Shown here: in pieces, positions 2,917 to 63,899 of the stretch
How the letters are laid out: each line of letters opens with the position of its first letter
How positions within the stretch are numbered: the stretch's first letter is position 1
Assembly: GCA_964463875.1 (NCBI GenBank)
Contig: CAYXEG010000001.1
Location: forward strand, 13,714-77,713
DNA from: an uncultured Dehalococcoidales bacterium
Lineage (GTDB): Bacteria > Chloroflexota > Dehalococcoidia > Dehalococcoidales > UBA2162
Length of the DNA: 64,000 nt
Direction of reading: 5' to 3'
Position numbers and translations under genes: made by a program
Notes under the pieces: generated by a model
Databases searched by the model: none
What the model was told of the DNA's origin: nothing
Seen by the model: the letters and a program-made list of their open reading frames with translations, nothing else

Positions 2917-4644
2917 ATGTCAGAAAAAATCACCTGCATTAATCCGACAGGTATTTCGGAACCGGTCGATACTTTCCCGTTAGCCACAAGGCTGGACACT
3001 CTGGACGGAAAAACGATACACATCAGTATCACCGGAGAACCGGATATCACCCTGCCTCTGGAGAAAAAACTCAGAGCCAATTATCCGAATGTGAACTGGA
3101 CTCAGAAAAAGTCATACACGCCTACTCCGGTCTACCTTTCCGAGGAAGAGATGAAGACGACCGATGCCGTGATACTGGCGGTATGCTGGTGAAGCGGCGC
3201 CGTATGGGGGCAGTTGCCCTACATTACAAAACTCGAAAAGGCAGGGATACCAACGGTAATAGTCGATCTCGAAGACCAGCATCAAATGGTGAAACAGACA
3301 GCTTTACGGTATGGCGTACCCGAAGTGCGTTTTCTTGCGGCTTCACGCACGGTTCACGGCGAACTGGATTGTGACGCCTTTATCGAACCGATGCTTGATA
3401 TGCTGGTAAAACCGCTCACTGAAAAAGAAAAAGAAAGAGGCCGCTGGACCCCATCACCTTCAGAAAGAATAATCTTTGAGGGTTCACACGATGATGCTGA
3501 GGAGTTTTTTCACCAGAGAGAATGGGTTGGTCATCCGGTAAAAGCATGGATATCGAAATATACCGATGGCTTGCCGGTGAGAATACCGACGGAAGAACGA
3601 GTCGCTGAGATGCTGAAAGGTACCAGCCATAAACCTGATGAGCTTATCGTTCATCAAAAGAACGGTAGAGGTTTTAAGAAAGGTGACCCGGTTCAATTTC
3701 AGCCAATGGGATGGACAGCAACGGTTGAGAAAGTGGCTGCTTGTGCTGTTATGGCAGGATGCAAGCCGGAATATCTGCCGGCGGTCCTTGCTATCGCTGA
3801 GTCAGGTTCATTTATCGGCAGCACCCACACCTTCGGTCACTGGCTCTGTGTCAGTGGGCCGTATGCTAAAGAAGTTGGTATGAACAGCGGTTGCGGCATG
3901 CTGGGTCCCGGCAACGATGCTAATTGTACCATTGGACGCGCTTATGAAATAATCGCCCGTAATATTGGCGGAGCTATTCCTGGGGTGAACCGGATGACGA
4001 GTATCGGCAGCCCGTTCGAGGGAAGTCGGTGCTGCGCAGAAAACGCGGAAGGTCTGCCGCCAGGGTGGGAAGGGTTGAATGAAGAAGCCGGGTACTCTAA
4101 AGATGAAAGTGTTATGCTGGTGATTCCGCATGTCAACGATGGTATCCGTGGTGTCCAGTTTTCACCCGGCGGTTACCGGGCATTCCAGAAAAGCGGTCAC
4201 GGGGGTATTGCCCGAAAACTGGGAGTCAAAGGAATTCCCGGTCCTCATAACTGGCTGGAGTATCTGATAGATGAATTCTGGGCGGGCAGAGAGGGCGCTA
4301 AAACCATCATCATGGTGCCTGAAATGGCGCAGCACCTCTATGAATATGGTTTTAAATCCAAGGATGAAGTCTATGAATGGCTGTATAAGAAGAGTTTCAT
4401 GCCGTTAGGGAAATACCGGCACTTTTCATGGGTAGACCTCGGTACGAACGGCTGGCTCGGTAAAGAGCCGATTTCAGGAAAGCCCTGGAAAGAGCTTTCG
4501 GATGATTATCTGGTTCCGGCAGCCGAAAGCCCTTACGCCTTCTGTATCATTGTTGGCGGAGGCGACGAAGAACTGAGCCACCAGTTAAGTTCTCATCTTC
4601 ATCTTGGCATCGATCCCTTTTACAGCATTGATGCCTGGCGTTAA
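2917..4644 (+). CDS. Candidate selenoprotein of unknown function (91 aa + Sec + 483 aa if UGA 3190 is read through); otherwise two separate hypothetical genes 2917..3192 and 3214..4644
   Basis: Both ORFs share one frame and are separated by a single TGA. The downstream ORF has only a TTG start. The local motif is DAVILAV-C-W-U-S-G. A hairpin lies downstream at SECIS-like spacing. AAGGAG SD precedes the ATG at 2917. Confidence 0.5.
3190..3192 (+). other. In-frame UGA, candidate selenocysteine codon
   Basis: tgc tgg TGA agc ggc gcc gta tgg ggg cag ttg. There are no other stops between the two ORFs. Confidence 0.5.
3203..3223 (+). promoter_or_regulatory. Candidate bacterial SECIS stem-loop
   Basis: GGGGC (3207-3211) pairs with GCCCU (3216-3220) around an AGUU loop. 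The stem is extendable with bulges (U3205-A3221, U3203-A3223). The loop G-U sits 24-25 nt from the U of UGA. Confidence 0.4.
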
Positions 4645-56638: not shown

Positions 56639-56806
56639 TCTCTTACCCCTCACCGCTGTTTTTCTGTTTATACTGTATCATAGCCCAAAACGGCCGTGCG
56701 GGAAAACCAGCATTGTTCGGCATGGAGCTATCCGTCTCTTTTTGTGTTAGAATTTGAAAGAAGCAGGCGAAAAGGCTTTACCGAATACCTGAAAAGAAGC
56801 GAACCA

Positions 56807-57964
56807 ATGAAAGATAACGTCGTCAGACTCAGTTACAATGATAAAGAAATTATTCTCATCGGCACCGCCCACGTTTCGCAGGAAAGCGCCGAACTGGTGA
56901 AGCGGGTTATCGAAGAAGAACGGCCGGACAGCGTTTGTGTCGAACTCGATGAAGGCCGGTATGAGAACCTGCGGAATCCGCAGTCGTGGGAAAATACGGA
57001 TGTCGTACAGATTATCAAAACGAAGAGAACCGGTTTTTTACTGGCTAACCTGGTGCTGGGCTCGTTCCAGAAAAACATCGCCCGGCAACTGGGGACGAAG
57101 GTTGGGCAGGAAATGCTCCAGGGCATAGAAAGCGCCCGGGAAACCGGCGCCGGACTGGTGCTGGCCGATCGCCCCATCCAGACCACCTTTCTGCGCATCT
57201 GGCGGAAACTGGGCTTATGGGAAAAAACGAAGCTGTTCTTCAGCCTGCTGTTTTCATTCAGCGAGGACGTCGGGCTGACCAGCGACGATGTCAACGACCT
57301 TCTGAAAGATGAAACCCTGGAGTCCGTTATCACCGAAATGAGGAAAAAATTCCCGGTCATCGGCCGGATTTTGATAAGCGAGCGCGACCAGTACCTGGCT
57401 TCCCGTATCCGGGAAGCCCCCGGGAGAAAAGTGGTAGCGATTCTCGGAGGCGCTCACGTGCCGGGCGTGAAAGAAGAAATCTACAAAGAACAGGATATCG
57501 CTGCAATTACTGAAATTCCCCGGGGAAGTCCGGTTTTCAAGTTACTCGGCTGGGTTATTCCCGTGGCGGTTCTCGGGTTGTTCATCTACGGGTTTGCGGT
57601 TAATGTCCAGACCGGGCTGGAGCAGCTTTCGGTCTGGTTTATCTGGAACAGCGCCCTGGCGGGCCTGTTTACGGCCCTGGTGCTGGGGCATCCCCTCAGT
57701 ATTCTGACGGCGCTTGTGTCGGCACCGTTCACCTCGATGAACCCCTTCCTTGCCTGCGGCTGGCTGGCCGGCCTTGTCGAAGCTACCGTCAGGAAACCGA
57801 CCGTGCATGATTTGCAGAACGTCTCCCGGGATTTCGGCAGCTTCAGGGGTTTTTTCAGGAACCGGTTCCTCAAGGCGCTTGCGGTCGTCATTGCTGCTAA
57901 CATCGGCAGCACCATCGGCACCTTCGTCGCCGGGACGAATATCATAAGAAATCTGTTCAGTTAA
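56807..57964 (+). CDS. TraB/GumN-family protein with C-terminal membrane domain
   Basis: IILIGTAHVSQESAELVKRVIEEERPDSVCVELDEGR, with hydrophobic C-terminal helices. The start is placed at the internal ATG 56807. Confidence 0.8.
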   Translation: MKDNVVRLSYNDKEIILIGTAHVSQESAELVKRVIEEERPDSVCVELDEGRYENLRNPQSWENTDVVQIIKTKRTGFLLANLVLGSFQKNIARQLGTKVGQEMLQGIESARETGAGLVLADRPIQTTFLRIWRKLGLWEKTKLFFSLLFSFSEDVGLTSDDVNDLLKDETLESVITEMRKKFPVIGRILISERDQYLASRIREAPGRKVVAILGGAHVPGVKEEIYKEQDIAAITEIPRGSPVFKLLGWVIPVAVLGLFIYGFAVNVQTGLEQLSVWFIWNSALAGLFTALVLGHPLSILTALVSAPFTSMNPFLACGWLAGLVEATVRKPTVHDLQNVSRDFGSFRGFFRNRFLKALAVVIAANIGSTIGTFVAGTNIIRNLFS

Positions 57965-57988: not shown

Positions 57989-59746
57989 CTAATCGCCGGT
58001 CAGCTTCGAGATTTCTCCGAGAACAGCTTTAATGTAAGTCCTGTCGATTTGTCCGGTCGGAGCTTTCGTTTCGAAAATTCTCTCGGGGATTCTCAGAGTA
58101 TCGAGGGAAAATCCTTCCCGAACCTTGAACCGGTACTTGTCATGGTATATCTGTCGCCCGATTCTCGTCAGTTCCTCTTCCGTCAGGTCCATTCCCGCCA
58201 GCTTCAGGCTTCGGATGACAGTTGCCGGAACATACAGGCCGCGCGCGAAAAAACACACCACCATCGACGACAGAATCTGCCGCCACTGTTCTTCCTTGAC
58301 GAGGGTTTCAGCCAGTTCTTTCGGCGACATTTCCCGTTTCATCAGGGTTTTCTGGTCGACACTGTACCCGCCGTTATCGAGATGGCTGTGGCGCATGCCG
58401 GCGAGGACCCCGATATGAGCTGCCGGGCCGGTATGGTAACCGGGCATTTCATTGCCGCCAAAGGAGAGGGCAAACTCTTCTCCGCCGTATTCGGAGGCGG
58501 CGAATTCGACCCCCCGTGCCAGCCCCCGGTAAAAACGGTTCGGCTGCGTGTTTATCAGCTCGACGGCTTCGATATACGAGGTATAATCGCCCCAGGTGAA
58601 CCGGATACCGAGCGTATCCGCCTCTTTGATAAAGCCTTTTTGCATGGCCTCGGTTGCCCAGGCCAGGACGACCCCCGCGCTCATCGCGTCCATGCCGAAT
58701 TTTTCGACTTTTTCGAGCAGTTTAAGGAAACCCCGGGCTTCGGTGATACCGAGCATCGAACCGAGCGAGTAGATAGTTTCGTAGTCGTATGAAATCATCG
58801 AGGTCTTGTAGAAATAAGACTCATCGGCATAGGGTTCTCTCAGGGCGGCGATGTGAATGCAACTGACCGGGCAATGGGAGCAGGCAAGCCTCCTGCCGAG
58901 GAAATTCTCGGCAAGGCTTTCCCCGGAAAGCTCTTCCGCACCCTCGAATTTCGTTTCCTGCAGGTTCCGGGTCGGCAGACCCCCCAGCAGATTGAGGGGA
59001 AGGACGTTTTCGGCCGTGCCCAGGTCATGGTACTTCTGCATGACACTGGATTTCGTTATCGATTCGTAGAGTTCGTCGTACAATTTCCGGTATTCGCGCC
59101 TGTCAGGAACGGAAATCGAACGTTTCCCGGTGACGACGACCGCCTTGAGTTTCTTGCTGCCGAAGACCGCCCCGAGTCCCAGCCTGCCGAAATGACGGTA
59201 GGTTTCGGTGGTGACTCCGGCATATCTGACGAGACGTTCACCCGCGCCGCCGATGCGCATAATGGTCCGCAGCCCGCTGCCGGATTCGTTTTCCCGGATA
59301 ATCCGCCCGACGGTGAAGCTGCTTTCCATACCCCAGATGGTTGAAGCGTTCCGGAATTCCACTCCTTTTCCGGTGATGGTAAGGTAAATCGGCAGTTCGC
59401 TGGCTCCCTTAATGACGATTGCTCCGTATCCGGCCATCCGGATAGAGATGGCGCTCCGCCCGCCGCAGTGGCTCTCTCCCAGATTGCCGGTGAGGGGTGA
59501 TTTGAACATGGCAACGGTTTTCGAGGCAAGGGGAAGTACCCCCGTCAGAGGGCCGACCGCGAAAATAACCGGATTATCCGGCCCGAGCGAATCGGCGTTT
59601 TCCGGGCATTCCTCAGCAAGGAGAGCGGTGGCAACACCGGTGCCGCCGATATACCGGGTAAAGAGTTCCGGCCTTTTTTCCACCCGAAAACTCTTGTCCG
59701 TCAAGTTAACATAAAGAACACGGTCTAAACTGGCATCAGTCAGCAT
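57989..59746 (-). CDS. aor: Aldehyde:ferredoxin oxidoreductase family (tungstopterin) enzyme
   Basis: 585 aa. RVLYVNLTDKSF...YIGGTGVATALL...GPLTG... and ...CSHCPVSC... are typical of AOR. Confidence 0.85.
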   Translation of the reverse strand: MLTDASLDRVLYVNLTDKSFRVEKRPELFTRYIGGTGVATALLAEECPENADSLGPDNPVIFAVGPLTGVLPLASKTVAMFKSPLTGNLGESHCGGRSAISIRMAGYGAIVIKGASELPIYLTITGKGVEFRNASTIWGMESSFTVGRIIRENESGSGLRTIMRIGGAGERLVRYAGVTTETYRHFGRLGLGAVFGSKKLKAVVVTGKRSISVPDRREYRKLYDELYESITKSSVMQKYHDLGTAENVLPLNLLGGLPTRNLQETKFEGAEELSGESLAENFLGRRLACSHCPVSCIHIAALREPYADESYFYKTSMISYDYETIYSLGSMLGITEARGFLKLLEKVEKFGMDAMSAGVVLAWATEAMQKGFIKEADTLGIRFTWGDYTSYIEAVELINTQPNRFYRGLARGVEFAASEYGGEEFALSFGGNEMPGYHTGPAAHIGVLAGMRHSHLDNGGYSVDQKTLMKREMSPKELAETLVKEEQWRQILSSMVVCFFARGLYVPATVIRSLKLAGMDLTEEELTRIGRQIYHDKYRFKVREGFSLDTLRIPERIFETKAPTGQIDRTYIKAVLGEISKLTGD

Positions 59747-60152
59747 TTTCCACCCTCTCCTCTTTTTTCAGTTCGAGGACACCGTGAGGGCAGTAACTGG
59801 TACAGTAACCGCAGTGAATGCAGATAGTAGGTTTGTTGGTCTCCTCGTAGCAGAAAACGGCGCCGATGATGCAGGCATCCCGGCAGTTGCCGCAGCCGAT
59901 GCACTTCGAGGGGTCGAGTTTAACGCCCCCGCCTTTCCGGAGAACAAGAGCTTCGGTAGGGCAGACTTTGGCGCAGGGAGGGTTGACGCAGGCCCGGCAG
60001 ACGATAACGGTGAACCCGCGTTCCATGCCACCGACCGACCGGACTTCGATACAGGTACCCGATAATCCGGCTTCACCCTGCCTCCTGGCACAGGCGAACA
60101 TACAGGACTGACAACCGACACACCGCTCGGCATCGGTAATCGATAATCTCAT
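59736..60152 (-). CDS. Poly-[4Fe-4S] ferredoxin (AOR electron-transfer partner)
   Basis: CVGCQSCMFAC, CRACVNPPCAKVCP, CIGCGNCRDAC, CIHCGYCTSYCP. It overlaps the AOR start by 11 nt. Confidence 0.9.
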   Translation of the reverse strand: MRLSITDAERCVGCQSCMFACARRQGEAGLSGTCIEVRSVGGMERGFTVIVCRACVNPPCAKVCPTEALVLRKGGGVKLDPSKCIGCGNCRDACIIGAVFCYEETNKPTICIHCGYCTSYCPHGVLELKKEERVENAD

Positions 60153-60298: not shown

Positions 60299-60985
60299 TC
60301 ACCTATGAGGAACAACGCGAACGACAAGATGCCCGGCCGTGCTCCGGCCGGAAGTCGCAGCGGTTACCGGGACCATCGTCAGCCCTGTATCAGCCGGCTG
60401 CTTCAAGGCTACGGCAAACCGGAACTCGATTTCTCTGACCAGTAACCCGGGCAGAGAACCCGGAATGCCGGCTTGAAAATCGTTCAGCAGGGCGGTAATC
60501 TGTTCCGGCTGTAAAGGAATGTCCTTATCCGGTTGTTGTTCGGCGGCCATTTCCCTGATTTGGTTTTCCAGGGTGGCTATCTTTGCCTGAAGCCCGGTAA
60601 TCTGATTCTCGGCTGCCAGCCGCAGTGCTTCGTTTGATGCCGCCAGGGTTTTCCCCTTTTCAATTTCCCTGTTCAGGTTCTCGATGGTCAGCAGCAGCCG
60701 TTCGTTTTCTTTTTTTACCGCGACGAGTGCCGCGTTCGATTTCTTGTTTTCATCGAGAGCATTTTGCAGGCGGGTATCGGGTTCGGCTGCTTTTTCCACG
60801 GCGGGCTTGGCAGCGATAAGGTTCTCTGGGATTTTTTTCAGCGCGGCAACCTGTTTCGATACCGAATCGGCTGTATCGGTCGATTTACCGTCTTTTGCCG
60901 TCCCTGTTCTCTTTATCGAAACCGGTTCGGGCTTGGTGGGCGTTTTTTTAACCGGTTGTATATCGTTTTTTTTCCGGCTGGTCAT
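60299..60985 (-). CDS. Hypothetical protein E: Lys/Pro-rich N-terminus, central coiled coil, C-terminal helix+beta module
   Basis: AAGGA SD. Heptad-like NERLLLTIENLNREIEKGKTL...LQAKIATLENQIREM. The C-terminal ITALLNDFQAGI...VREIEFRFAVAL...HLVVRVVP shares its layout with the three upstream genes. Confidence 0.7.
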   Translation of the reverse strand: MTSRKKNDIQPVKKTPTKPEPVSIKRTGTAKDGKSTDTADSVSKQVAALKKIPENLIAAKPAVEKAAEPDTRLQNALDENKKSNAALVAVKKENERLLLTIENLNREIEKGKTLAASNEALRLAAENQITGLQAKIATLENQIREMAAEQQPDKDIPLQPEQITALLNDFQAGIPGSLPGLLVREIEFRFAVALKQPADTGLTMVPVTAATSGRSTAGHLVVRVVPHR

Positions 60986-60997
60986 ACCTGCTGTCCT

Positions 60998-61492
60998 TTA
61001 GTCGGGCAGTACGATTTCCTGAAGCACTTTACCGCTTTTATCTTCTACCGAGACGAGCCACCTGTTTTTTTCCGGAACGAAGGTCGGTTTCACCTGAAGG
61101 TCTCTCGCGTTTGCGGCCAGTTTCTGGATATCCTTGCGCTCAAGAACTTCCCGTATCAGGTCCGGGGTTGTTTTTTTAGACGGGGCGGCTTCCTTAACGG
61201 GTGCCCGGACAGGTTCGTCGAAGGTACTCACGTAACTTATCCGCAACGTCGACAGCAGCCCGGGGTCGATTGCCGCCGTCCTGATTTCCTCGGAGGAAAC
61301 CGGCCTGACCGTCAATTTCCCTTTTGAAGTATCGACCGTTACCTTGATTTCCAGGTCGGCGTTATTCAGTACGATATTGGAATTGAGGTTCAGGCCGGAC
61401 AACAGCGAACTCTGGGCGTCGGTGAAGGATTGTCCGGCCATCTCGAGAAAACTCGTCATCTCGATGTTTTCCGAAGCCTTATTCTCAGTCAT
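60998..61492 (-). CDS. Hypothetical protein D: short version of the helix+beta module plus unique C-terminal domain
   Basis: AGGAG SD. FLEMAGQSFTDAQSSL...ADLEIKVTV...LSTLRISYV. Confidence 0.7.
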   Translation of the reverse strand: MTENKASENIEMTSFLEMAGQSFTDAQSSLLSGLNLNSNIVLNNADLEIKVTVDTSKGKLTVRPVSSEEIRTAAIDPGLLSTLRISYVSTFDEPVRAPVKEAAPSKKTTPDLIREVLERKDIQKLAANARDLQVKPTFVPEKNRWLVSVEDKSGKVLQEIVLPD

Positions 61493-61527
61493 ACGGCATT
61501 TAGCTCCTGATTATTCATTTTGCAGGG

Positions 61528-62163
61528 TTACTCTTTCGTTTCGGTGGTTCGGGACGGCTCGATTCGTATCGGGGGCGGTACCGGGACAAGTGTTGCCGTC
61601 AATTTCGAGGTTATCTTCAGGTCTTTATTCAGCTTTCGCTCCATCTGGATAGTACTGGTGTTGGCGAACAGTGTTTTTTTACCCTTTTCGGTGCTGCTTT
61701 CGTTCTCCACCACAGTCAGGTCGAGCGCCACTTCGACGGTTGCCTGGGAAAATTGATAGAAGGACGGCAACATGCCGAGTTCGAGCAGGCTGATACTTTG
61801 AGGAGGGCTGTTTTTATAGGTGATATTCCCTTTTTCATCGACTGTCTCGGTGATGTTCCGGACAACGTTCACTTTCGTCTCGGCGAGTTCGGTCATCATC
61901 TCGGCGGAGGCTTTATCGAGGCTCATCTGGGCGTCGGCGATGGATTCCCCAAGCATGCGGACGAGGTCGCCGAACGATGTCGAAGGTACTTTACTGACAA
62001 TTGTTTCGGGCGATACGATAGGGTTCCGGAAAGCGCGGATATCTGCCGGTAGTTTTTTTGGATTAACCATCTGTCCTTCCTGCTCCTGACCTGCATCGGG
62101 TATTCCCGGTACAGTATTTTTCGAGATGCGCTTTGAGGTGACAGGCGGTTTGCCCTCCGCCAT
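61528..62163 (-). CDS. Hypothetical protein C: paralogue of 62204..62740
   Basis: MLGESIADAQMSLD...SISLLELGMLPSFYQFSQATVEVALDL...KLTATLVPVPPPIRIEP. An alternative start at 62070 has a strong AGGAGCAGGAAGGA SD. Confidence 0.7.
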   Translation of the reverse strand: MAEGKPPVTSKRISKNTVPGIPDAGQEQEGQMVNPKKLPADIRAFRNPIVSPETIVSKVPSTSFGDLVRMLGESIADAQMSLDKASAEMMTELAETKVNVVRNITETVDEKGNITYKNSPPQSISLLELGMLPSFYQFSQATVEVALDLTVVENESSTEKGKKTLFANTSTIQMERKLNKDLKITSKLTATLVPVPPPIRIEPSRTTETKE

Positions 62164-62203
62164 GCCACCTCAAACACACTGCAATGGCTACGCTGCCCGG
62201 TCG

Positions 62204-62740
62204 TTAGGCTTCGTTTTCGGGCTTTTCCTTGGGAGGCCGGTTATCGACCACGCTCAAAACCGGTTCGATGCGCGGAGGCGGCGGAACCGGAACCATCTTC
62301 GTGACCAGCCGACTGGTTCCGTGGACTTCCTTGCCGAATTTACGGTTATGCGATACCTCGGTGTTGACGGAAGCGCTGAAACAGGCGAACCCGACTTTGG
62401 CTTTGGCGCTTACCTTGACATTCGTCTCCCGGGACGTCGTCGTCTTGATGTCCATGGTGACTTCGATGGTCGCTTCCGAGAACTGATAGAACGTCGGGAG
62501 CAGCCCAATCTGGAGCAGCGACACTTCCACCGGGGGAGCGTTGGTAAACGTTACTCCACCGTCAGCGTCAATTACCTGGGTTACTCCGAGAACCAGCGGC
62601 ACCGTCGTTTCCGCGAGAAGCTTGGCTGTATCGACAGAATTCTCATCGAGCGCTCTTTGAGCTTCTGCGATACCGAGCCCCAGTTTCATTACCATTTCCG
62701 GTAACGGAACTGCCAGTAATTCCTGTCCTACACCTGCCAT
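62204..62740 (-). CDS. Hypothetical protein B: paralogue of 61528..62163
   Basis: AAGGAG SD 8 nt upstream. KLGLGIAEAQRALD...EVSLLQIGLLPTFYQFSEATIEVTMDI...RLVTKMVPVPPPPRIEP. Confidence 0.75.
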   Translation of the reverse strand: MAGVGQELLAVPLPEMVMKLGLGIAEAQRALDENSVDTAKLLAETTVPLVLGVTQVIDADGGVTFTNAPPVEVSLLQIGLLPTFYQFSEATIEVTMDIKTTTSRETNVKVSAKAKVGFACFSASVNTEVSHNRKFGKEVHGTSRLVTKMVPVPPPPRIEPVLSVVDNRPPKEKPENEA

Positions 62741-62796
62741 GTTCGTTTCTCCTTTTCTCCTGTTTTTTTAAATACGGGTTGACTGACAGGGAACAA

Positions 62797-63117
62797 TCAT
62801 TCCCTCATTACCATCTTCGTCAGTACTTTTAACGCTTGTTCGAACTTTTCGGTATCAACGGTGACCGGACCGATTTTTACGATTAACGGGTTGTTTTTCA
62901 GACGGATAAACCCGCTGAAAGGCAGTGTTACCAGAAAATCCCGGGAGGTCAGCTTCATTACTATCTCACCCCCGTGTTCCCGGATTAAACTTTCAGGGGT
63001 AACGGCGTTGCAGGTTAACAGGTAGATGCTTCTTTCCGGCCCTTCGATACTGATTTTGGCCCCCATGATGCCGTTTTTCCGGAGGAAATTTCCGGAAGAA
63101 TCAGGTATAGTATTCAT
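62797..63117 (-). CDS. Hypothetical protein A (106 aa, beta-rich with C-terminal helix); first gene of the operon
   Basis: The ATG at 63117 lies 9 nt after GAGGAG. I recognise no family. Confidence 0.6.
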   Translation of the reverse strand: MNTIPDSSGNFLRKNGIMGAKISIEGPERSIYLLTCNAVTPESLIREHGGEIVMKLTSRDFLVTLPFSGFIRLKNNPLIVKIGPVTVDTEKFEQALKVLTKMVMRE

Positions 63118-63305
63118 GTTAACGATGCTCCTCATAGTAACCCCGGCTCGGAGGGATAGGATGCAGTGGAATTGTTTACCAAGAGATATAACGGAATTCC
63201 TTGAAGAAAGGTTGAATTATTCTACGGAAAAGTTCCAATGAGTATTTTTCAGACTGATTGTGAAAACGGGTAATAACGGATAACTAATAAAGGATTATTC
63301 AACCT

Positions 63306-63899
63306 TTGAACGATTCTTTCGTTACAAAAGATAAGGGTGACTGCTTACGAGGTGATAAGGTTCTTACCAATATTGAAGACCTTGTCTCCATGGCTCAGCG
63401 TGGAGACAGTCATGCTTTCAGCTTGCTCTACCAGGAGTATGTCCGTCCTATATATCAATATATTTATATGCGGGTGGACAAAAACACCGAACAGGCGGAA
63501 GATTTGACCCAGGAAGTCTTCCTCAAAGCCCTGGATAATCTTCAAAAATACCGGTACCGGGGGAAACCTTTTACTAGCTGGCTGTACCGTATTGCTCATA
63601 ATCTCGTCATCGACTATTACCGGCATGCCAATAAAAACCATGCGTCTCCCATTACCGAGACGATGGTTATGGTGTCCGAGGAAAATCCGGTCAGCGCGGT
63701 TGAGCGTTCAGCAGAATTGAACGAACTGAAAAAAGCTATCGAGAAGCTGCCGCCTCAGCAGAAAGAGGTTATATCGTTACGCTTTATCAACGGATTATCG
63801 ATTGCCGAAACCGCTGAGATAATCGGGAAAACAGGCGGTAATGTAAAAAAGTTACAGCATGTCGCACTAACGAAACTCAAGAAGATAATGAACAGCTGA
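63306..63899 (+). CDS. ECF-type RNA polymerase sigma-70 family factor
   Basis: Region 2: FSLLYQEYVRPIYQYIYMRV...AEDLTQEVFLKAL...FTSWLYRIAHNLVIDYYR. Region 4: LPPQQKEVISLRFINGLSIAETAEIIGKTGGNVKKLQHVAL. The start is uncertain (TTG 63306 or ATG 63390). Confidence 0.9.
   Translation: MNDSFVTKDKGDCLRGDKVLTNIEDLVSMAQRGDSHAFSLLYQEYVRPIYQYIYMRVDKNTEQAEDLTQEVFLKALDNLQKYRYRGKPFTSWLYRIAHNLVIDYYRHANKNHASPITETMVMVSEENPVSAVERSAELNELKKAIEKLPPQQKEVISLRFINGLSIAETAEIIGKTGGNVKKLQHVALTKLKKIMNS

Follow-up and report, generated by a model that had tools for sequence, protein, structure and literature searches.

The genes A to E occupy one strand of a 64,000-nt stretch of contig CAYXEG010000001.1 from an uncultured Dehalococcoidales bacterium (hereafter the window, whose positions give the coordinates of A–E). 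They form a cassette for which a scan with a single genome per species returned 80 loci, in as many genomes, from about 12 phyla of bacteria and from the haloarchaea; up to 6 kb of flanking sequence was included at each locus. None of the five proteins falls within any named family; A–E pass no Pfam, NCBIfam, PHROGs or PADLOC model. The reading that we tentatively favor is that A–E build a β-barrel assembly of the ring-and-stem type, which would be hetero-oligomeric, composed of several paralogues and devoid of a protease, and which resembles DUF2589 proteins and the defence effector Pepco (peptidase co-occurring domain, the present name of Trypco1/Trypco2; bioRxiv 10.1101/2025.11.14.688446). 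Evidence for this reading comes from a module common to B, C, D and, more distantly, E; sub-threshold similarity of this module to Trypco2 and DUF2589; a predicted monomer fold of B that is dominated by a very long amphipathic hairpin; and an extreme conservation of B across all hosts.

The shared module and its relatives

In BLASTP, B and C share 41% identity over 146 residues (E = 9e-37), so that their paralogy is clear, as had been stated in a first-pass annotation of the window made from the sequence alone. The same program finds no significant match of D to the other cassette proteins. For the more distant relationships, family profiles (hidden Markov models [HMMs] and hhalign) were built from the 80 related loci. 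Herein, the N terminus of D matches the B/C profile with E = 5.8e-5 and a probability of 66% (domain-level hhalign), compared with E = 0.06–0.6 for the controls, in which A or the C-terminal domain of D was aligned to B/C. Likewise, the D-family HMM reaches 5e-7 on B/C sequences, whereas the A control remains at 0.003–0.005. In the haloarchaeon Natronomonas (locus L078), the position of D is taken by a 130-aa protein that ends with MVPVPPE, is matched by the D HMM along the entire module (1.3e-6) and groups with B/C by BLAST; its score with the B/C HMM (6.5e-33) is circular, the protein being part of that HMM's training set. It consists of a helix that is directly followed by the strand SEVEADLQIAV and, judged from its layout and matches, is a natural intermediate between D and B/C. 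This layout supports the register proposed in the first-pass annotation, which equates ADLEIKVTV of D with ATIEVTMDI of B, and the proposal that D carries a shorter copy of the module is borne out by the hhalign match, the D HMM and the haloarchaeal intermediate alike.

For E, residues 180–224 align to residues 38–87 of D (hhalign, E = 6.8e-5), but its C terminus has no direct match to B/C (E = 0.48). The link of E to B/C is thus transitive and the weakest of the module, since E aligns to D but not to B/C. Of the earlier claim that E bears the module at its C terminus, the kinship with D was retained and the direct one with B/C was not. A has no detectable relation to B–E by profile comparison. 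Overall, the alignments argue for an origin of B, C and D from one module and, more weakly, for the same origin of E; under formal alignment statistics, the similarity that was first noticed by eye persists for B, C and D, and for E through D only.

The characterization of A–E as uncharacterized proteins stands. In RefSeq, the five orthologues of Sphaerotilus sulfidivorans are all named "hypothetical protein," and the PHROGs and PADLOC scans returned coiled-coil noise for E only. UniRef names one B orthologue (Pelovirga) a DUF2589 protein. Sequence searches of the PDB with the B/C and A profiles gave nothing, A has no Pfam match, and 65 diverse members of the superfamily have essentially no Pfam coverage. 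A description of the cassette was absent from the literature searched.

Two Pfam families come close to their gathering thresholds, which are 24.2 bits for Trypco2 (PF19631) and 23 bits for DUF2589 (PF11655). For the B/C consensus, the score with DUF2589 is 20.8 bits (E = 5.3e-4, positions 2–133 of 154); the consensus of the D N terminus reaches 23.2 bits with Trypco2 (E = 8.1e-5, positions 1–61 of 78) and B itself 13.9 bits with Trypco2 (E = 0.064), all three being sub-threshold. Window B and C show no match to DUF2589 at E ≤ 1, and of the 65 superfamily members tested singly, one matches Trypco2 (8e-4) and one DUF2589 (3.3e-4). A likeness to these two families had been suggested in the first-pass annotation; it was recovered at near-threshold level, and at the level of sequence it is a real but sub-threshold signal.

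When the models of B and D were compared with PDB structures by Foldseek, nothing significant emerged, the best match of B having an E of 0.35. The weak B matches (E ≥ 0.35) include complement C3, many toxin pore stems and phage tail tubes. Among the stems are those of anthrax PA, aerolysin, lysenin and CDTb/iota Ib (E = 1.8–5, TM-score of about 0.1). The sole significant structural match across the libraries searched is the viral protein A0A516MP19 in BFVD, which has 178 aa and shares the B fold (E = 2.8e-5, TM-score 0.55, 19% identity). None of the profile and structure searches that were run places A–E in a well-characterized family.

Predicted structure, conservation and distribution

The AlphaFold model of B (predicted local distance difference test [pLDDT] 82) contains an amphipathic helix (residues 13–44), four short strands (46–74) and a very long hairpin (84–110/127–152) with 27–34 residues per strand. 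Alternate residues of the hairpin compose an apolar/small face (FQSAIVMITTRTVVAAVF and AFAVTVHRFKVGSLTMP) and an opposite polar/charged face (YFETETDKTSENKSKKG and CSSNESNKGEHTRVKVV). The 11 tip-proximal residues of either strand alternate strictly, and this length is that of a β-hairpin that spans a membrane. The tip (108–129; VKVSAKAKVGF/ACFSASVNTEV) is amphipathic as well, with a strong β-periodic hydrophobic moment. The hairpin is followed by a C-terminal Pro/charged tail (153–178; PPPPRIEPVLSVVDNRPPKEKPENEA), of which 35% is charged and 31% proline. A conserved VVDNRP motif is located past the last strand.

In C, the hairpin is eight residues shorter than that of B and has a polar tip. 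Its N-terminal extension (residues ~36–53) carries the conserved (L)RAFRxPIVxPE, the rest of the extension being variable; this motif, or VVDNRP of B, may serve in docking or processing. The D model (AlphaFold, pLDDT 73) comprises a helix (12–33), strands 46–56, 59–64 and 80–86 and, after a disordered linker, a separate small α/β domain (109–163). D occurs in two forms: a short one of ~160 aa, behind which E is encoded, and a long one of 314–339 aa in loci that lack E. In the long form, the module is joined to PASTA and DUF4332/HhH (HHH_5) domains, which replace the C-terminal half. Long D proteins were noted in L001 (11157–12149), L007, L009, L010, L016, L026 and L032; they look cytoplasmic and include those of Dehalococcoidia. 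Dehalococcoidia are not known to have peptidoglycan, and binding of peptidoglycan by the PASTA segment of long D is unlikely.

E consists of a coiled coil (~40–150) and the D-like module (~160–225). Residues 40–150 are matched by coiled-coil families only, and the length of the family varies from 168 to 537 aa. The Lys/Pro-rich tail, which the first-pass annotation had considered as possibly binding nucleic acids or membranes, is indeed present in window E but is lineage-specific rather than conserved across the E family. As few orthologues carry it, it was rejected as a conserved nucleic-acid-binding element. For A, the conserved pattern looks α/β rather than purely β; A may resemble the β-α-β-β-α-β fold of subtilisin propeptides. 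The absence of transmembrane helices noted earlier holds for all five proteins: no segment of A–E is of transmembrane grade (maximum Kyte–Doolittle value of 1.34 over 19-residue windows).

Conservation differs strongly between the five genes. The median identity to the window proteins is 77% for B (range 65–92% across the 80 loci), 53% for C, 34% for A, 33% for D and 31% for E. Between Dehalococcoidia and haloarchaea, B is still 65% identical, compared with ~30% for its operon partners. Synonymous sites are saturated in every gene (pS, the proportion of synonymous differences, is 0.62–0.90 by Nei–Gojobori), even against the 92%-identical B and the nearest of the other species in the comparison, while the nonsynonymous divergence dN is 0.05–0.33 for B, 0.26–0.80 for C and 0.41–0.96 for A and D. 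Because synonymous sites are saturated, the conservation of B is attributed to intense purifying selection and not to recent transfer. Horizontal transfer appears to have occurred as well, since window B is closer to those of Pontiella and Desulfatiglans than to those of other Chloroflexota. Constraint of this degree is usually a mark of core machinery or of shell proteins that form lattices. The substitution pattern indicates very strong selection on nearly every residue of B, as expected for a densely packed homo-oligomer.

Within the Chloroflexota, the cassette is found in Dehalococcoidia, Anaerolineae, Chloroflexia and Thermomicrobiales. Further bacterial loci belong to Verrucomicrobiota, Kiritimatiellota, α-, β- and γ-Proteobacteria, Desulfobacterota, Gemmatimonadota, Chlorobiaceae, Cyanobacteria, Acidobacteriota, Nitrospirota, Clostridia and Actinomycetota, and the haloarchaeal ones to Natronomonas and Halorubrum. 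The prevailing gene order is (A)-B-C-D(-E), with orthologues of A in 44 loci and in L078 of Natronomonas. The latter locus (Natronomonas gomsonensis, L078 5980–8784) deviates in its order, which is B, C, a short B/C-like protein, E and, last, A; its E unites the coiled coil, the module and PASTA-like and HhH segments in one protein. Clustering of the open reading frames (ORFs) of the 80 loci gives A, B/C, D and E as the only gene families in common, hence the cassette is considered self-contained. The view that A–E are one functional unit agrees with its repetition in 80 loci without any further conserved neighbor. The neighbors are housekeeping genes, such as the phn operon, a tripartite ATP-independent periplasmic (TRAP) transporter, ilvD, purC and the gene of aldehyde:ferredoxin oxidoreductase (AOR).

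At the level of 90%-identity clusters, B has 731 relatives, of which the top 120 are 78–100% identical and come from widely differing phyla. A search with the B/C profile delimits a superfamily of 956 clusters at 50% identity. Its distant members are arranged in arrays of two to four paralogues, at times with TPR proteins, and no protease lies beside them in the inspected loci. Locus L084 (705–3860) encodes two remote relatives of B/C, with 611 and 427 aa. The 427-aa protein has ~250 residues between helix and hairpin, with Gly-rich "GxGY...GGGGxGA" repeats, which we take to resemble phage fibre or surface repeats. No match to the cassette was obtained in 50,697 phage genomes, a pattern scan of IMG/VR gave no tblastn-confirmed match, and plasmids yielded one match only; a viral or mobile origin was therefore rejected.

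Operon layout and regulation

The coordinates of the cassette genes, the two promoters and the sigma gene are given in the table. All five ORFs were found where the first-pass annotation had placed them, as co-directional genes with short gaps (56, 40, 35 and 12 nt from A to E) and Shine–Dalgarno-like sites, a GGAG/GAGG-type site being located upstream of every start codon. For A, the longest ORF opens at 63135; conservation among orthologues sets in near residue 24, and GAGGAG precedes the ATG at 63117.

Table. Features of the A–E operon and of the divergent extracytoplasmic function (ECF) sigma gene, in window positions.
Feature	Position	Strand	Length	Description and basis
Gene A	62797..63117	-	106-112 aa	Small, putative accessory protein, own family; ORF and orthologues
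Gene B	62204..62740	-	178 aa	Putative major subunit; ORF, AlphaFold, identity and dN data
Gene C	61528..62163	-	211 aa	B paralogue with N-terminal extension; BLASTP, alignment, consensus
Gene D	60998..61492	-	164 aa	Short Trypco2-like module, linker and C-terminal alpha/beta domain
Gene E	60299..60985	-	228 aa	N-terminal Lys/Pro-rich tail, coiled coil, C-terminal D-like module
ECF-type promoter of A–E	63189..63216	-		TTCAACC-N16-CGTTA, ~70 nt upstream of A
ECF-type promoter of sigma gene	63298..63324	+		Matching TTCAAC-type motif; presumed autoregulatory
ECF sigma gene	63306..63899	+		Pfam Sigma70_r2, Sigma70_r4, Sigma70_ECF; outside the conserved cassette

ECF-type promoters are recognized by an "AAC" in the −35 element and a "CGT" in the −10 element. 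The motif TTCAAC-N16/17-CGTTA occurs twice in the 64-kb window, compared with 0.04 expected copies, with one copy for each of the two transcription units. The outward-facing ATTCAACCTTT...CGTTA copies correspond to the inverted repeat I7 (63207–63223/63291–63307), and the same promoter pair is present in L003 and L004, the two closest relatives. The true start of the sigma gene must lie further downstream, since the start of the longest ORF (TTG at 63306) overlaps the promoter. Because both transcription units share an ECF-type promoter, the A–E operon most likely belongs to the regulon of the ECF sigma next to it, which is presumed to be autoregulated.

A sigma gene near the cassette is found in three of the 80 genome-scan loci and in L001 (among these loci are L001, L003 and L004), and ECF control as a general trait of the cassette was therefore rejected. 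Behind the sigma gene of L004 lies that of a 399-aa DUF5667 membrane protein, likely an anti-sigma. Of the divergent ECF sigma/anti-sigma pair in the first-pass annotation, the sigma with its shared promoter was upheld; the position of the anti-sigma falls beyond the end of the window and is occupied by such a gene in L004 only, and the link is not a general one. L004 also contains an extra 55-codon ORF (4092–4259, plus strand; MGNDVVGGERNISEPVRPETIIKYQELIHALAMYDVSPEQLKKIAGSFSKRRYNE) between the ECF promoter and A, which is absent from the window.

Directly 3′ of E, the genes of a 4Fe-4S ferredoxin and of AOR (AFOR_N/AFOR_C) are located on the same strand (57989–60152, minus). The gap between E and the ferredoxin gene measures 146 nt and is without a convincing terminator, and the pair may be co-transcribed with A–E in the window; it is not kept beside the cassette in other genomes. 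A protein of the TraB/PrgY/GumN family (56696–57964, plus strand) has a hydrophobic C-terminal half, looks membrane-associated and is unrelated to the cassette. Scans of this region with Rfam and for sigma-70/terminator signals were uninformative.

Interpretation and comparison with known systems

In the assembly that we tentatively propose, B would be the main building block, with its N-terminal helices and meander forming a cap. The B hairpins would align side by side to create a long barrel, of which the distal part (~11 residues per strand) may insert into the cytoplasmic membrane from the inside. C, with its shorter and polar-tipped hairpin, would co-assemble or modulate; the shorter modules of D and E would dock adaptor domains, namely the α/β domain or PASTA and HhH domains in the case of D and the coiled coil in the case of E; and A would act as a dedicated accessory protein or chaperone. 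In the window genome, the neighboring ECF sigma would switch the operon on.

Several observations weigh against this proposal. No protease or sensor gene occurs at any locus, so that the activation logic of Pepco is absent. Defence and toxin effectors usually diverge fast, and B, unlike these, is nearly frozen. The membranes of the hosts differ strongly (archaeal ether lipids, monoderms and diderms), which is awkward for a conserved tip that inserts into lipids. The tip itself (114–133) is modeled with low confidence (pLDDT 39–47), and Thr, Arg, His and Lys break the apolar face of the hairpin in the middle of the stem. On the side of homology, the Pfam matches are sub-threshold, the window proteins score much lower than the consensus, and E is linked to B/C transitively only.

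It is possible, if doubtful, that A–E instead create a cytoplasmic, self-assembling tube, filament, sheet or shell that lacks a pore. Herein, B would be the wall subunit and C, D and E would be minor, capping or anchoring components, by analogy with GvpA and GvpJ/M/S or with R-bodies. Such conservation of one small subunit is typical of densely packed lattice proteins, and a structure of this kind would account for it at least as well as a barrel. Minor components related by paralogy are also encoded in the cassette, along with a coiled-coil protein whose length varies, and it is free of enzymes, ATPases, proteases and membrane proteins. The two faces of the hairpin, apolar/small on one side and charged on the other, would fit a two-surfaced sheet, and the fusions to HhH/DUF4332 and PASTA domains suggest anchoring to another component of the cell. 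However, no Pfam match to the Gvp, Reb, BMC or encapsulin families was obtained, no gvp or organelle genes lie near the cassette loci, the nearest sequence signal is that of Trypco2/Pepco, which forms closed rings, and the ECF sigma control in the window lineage hints at an envelope-related role. The ring or barrel is favored over a shell because of the predicted long hairpin and the parallel to Pepco.

We regard as unlikely an anti-phage, abortive-infection or other conflict module, in which B and C would be latent pore toxins that are checked by A, D or E and respond to an unlinked trigger. Pepco, whose layout is the same, acts as a defence effector, the phyletic spread is patchy, the genomic context variable, and the viral protein A0A516MP19 shares the B fold. 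Yet the cassette has no PADLOC match, no protease, STAND NTPase or other sensor is linked to it in the 80 loci, its neighbors are housekeeping genes instead of defence islands, and the near-invariance of B is the opposite of arms-race diversification; it is moreover absent from phage genomes and IMG/VR and present on one plasmid only. We consider it essentially excluded that the cassette is a structural-module remnant from a prophage or tailocin, in which B would form the tube or collar. The weak Foldseek matches to hairpins of phage tail, collar and tube proteins, a distant member with a weak Phage_tube_2 match and another with inserted repeat domains would fit such a remnant, but these matches are non-significant (E > 0.1), no PHROGs model is matched, neither the phage genomes searched nor IMG/VR contain the cassette, and no phage genes flank it in the 80 loci.

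There is a fair chance that A–E represent a hitherto unrecognized, self-sufficient nanostructure of bacteria and archaea, i.e., a ring or tube made from a β-barrel of ~100 Å that assembles without ATPases or enzymes, is under GvpA-like constraint and has a general cell-biological role rather than one in defence. If this were true, it could function as a stress-release valve, as an inside-out conduit through the membrane or as a scaffold anchored to the nucleoid or the envelope. Independent of the role, the five linked genes define a superfamily of ~956 clusters that current annotation leaves unnamed, and an unnamed protein as constrained as B is unusual. If B forms a protease-less barrel similar to that of Pepco, the fold would reach beyond phage defence into a conserved structure of the cell. 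Cultured hosts are available in Sphaerotilus sulfidivorans, Pelovirga terrestris, Rhodoferax ferrireducens, Desulfonatronovibrio hydrogenovorans, Natronomonas gomsonensis and Halorubrum tibetense.

Pepco is among the closest known systems. Its representative of 117 aa shows a basal amphipathic helix and a barrel with a charged lumen and a hydrophobic exterior, and its C-terminal tail is 40% charged and 20% proline; it is pre-assembled into barrels of 9–10 subunits that resist sodium dodecyl sulfate and form a pore once the linked protease cuts the tail (bioRxiv 10.1101/2025.11.14.688446). By the model of B and the published description of Pepco, B appears similar in its amphipathic helix, its hairpin, which is charged on one side and apolar on the other, and its disordered Pro/charged tail. 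In contrast to Pepco, B is ~60 residues longer, has an extra meander and a hairpin of roughly double length, and is extremely conserved instead of fast-evolving. The cassette further differs in having four paralogous forms and an unrelated fifth protein in one operon, in the absence of an adjoining trypsin-like or caspase-like protease, which for Pepco is usually fused to a sensor, and of any sensor in the flanks inspected and in that all Trypco2 scores are sub-threshold.

DUF2589 proteins share with the cassette the tandem arrays of short paralogues, and their Pfam model is covered almost completely by the B/C consensus. A run of short "DUF2589 related" genes in Archaeoglobus fulgidus (AF0414–0417) is induced on lactate (PMC3949148). 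As DUF2589 is without known function or structure, the match explains nothing by itself. The stems of β-barrel toxins resemble B in their long amphipathic hairpin, the strict alternation in the distal ~10–12 residues of each strand and the aromatic residues at the turn. The Foldseek values of these matches, however, give no evidence of homology, and the toxins are secreted and act from the outside, whereas A–E are without signal peptides.

Gas vesicles were considered as well, given hosts such as Chlorobium, Pseudanabaena, Limnothrix and the haloarchaea. A direct link was rejected, since Gvp domains and gvp neighbors are absent, and the cassette differs from gas vesicles in that it has neither sequence or fold similarity to them nor partners of the GvpN/F/L type. 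The likeness to GvpA is hence one of analogy: in both cases, a very conserved small subunit would be accompanied by divergent paralogues from the same operon (GvpJ/M/S for GvpA), and both systems are spread patchily over bacteria and haloarchaea.

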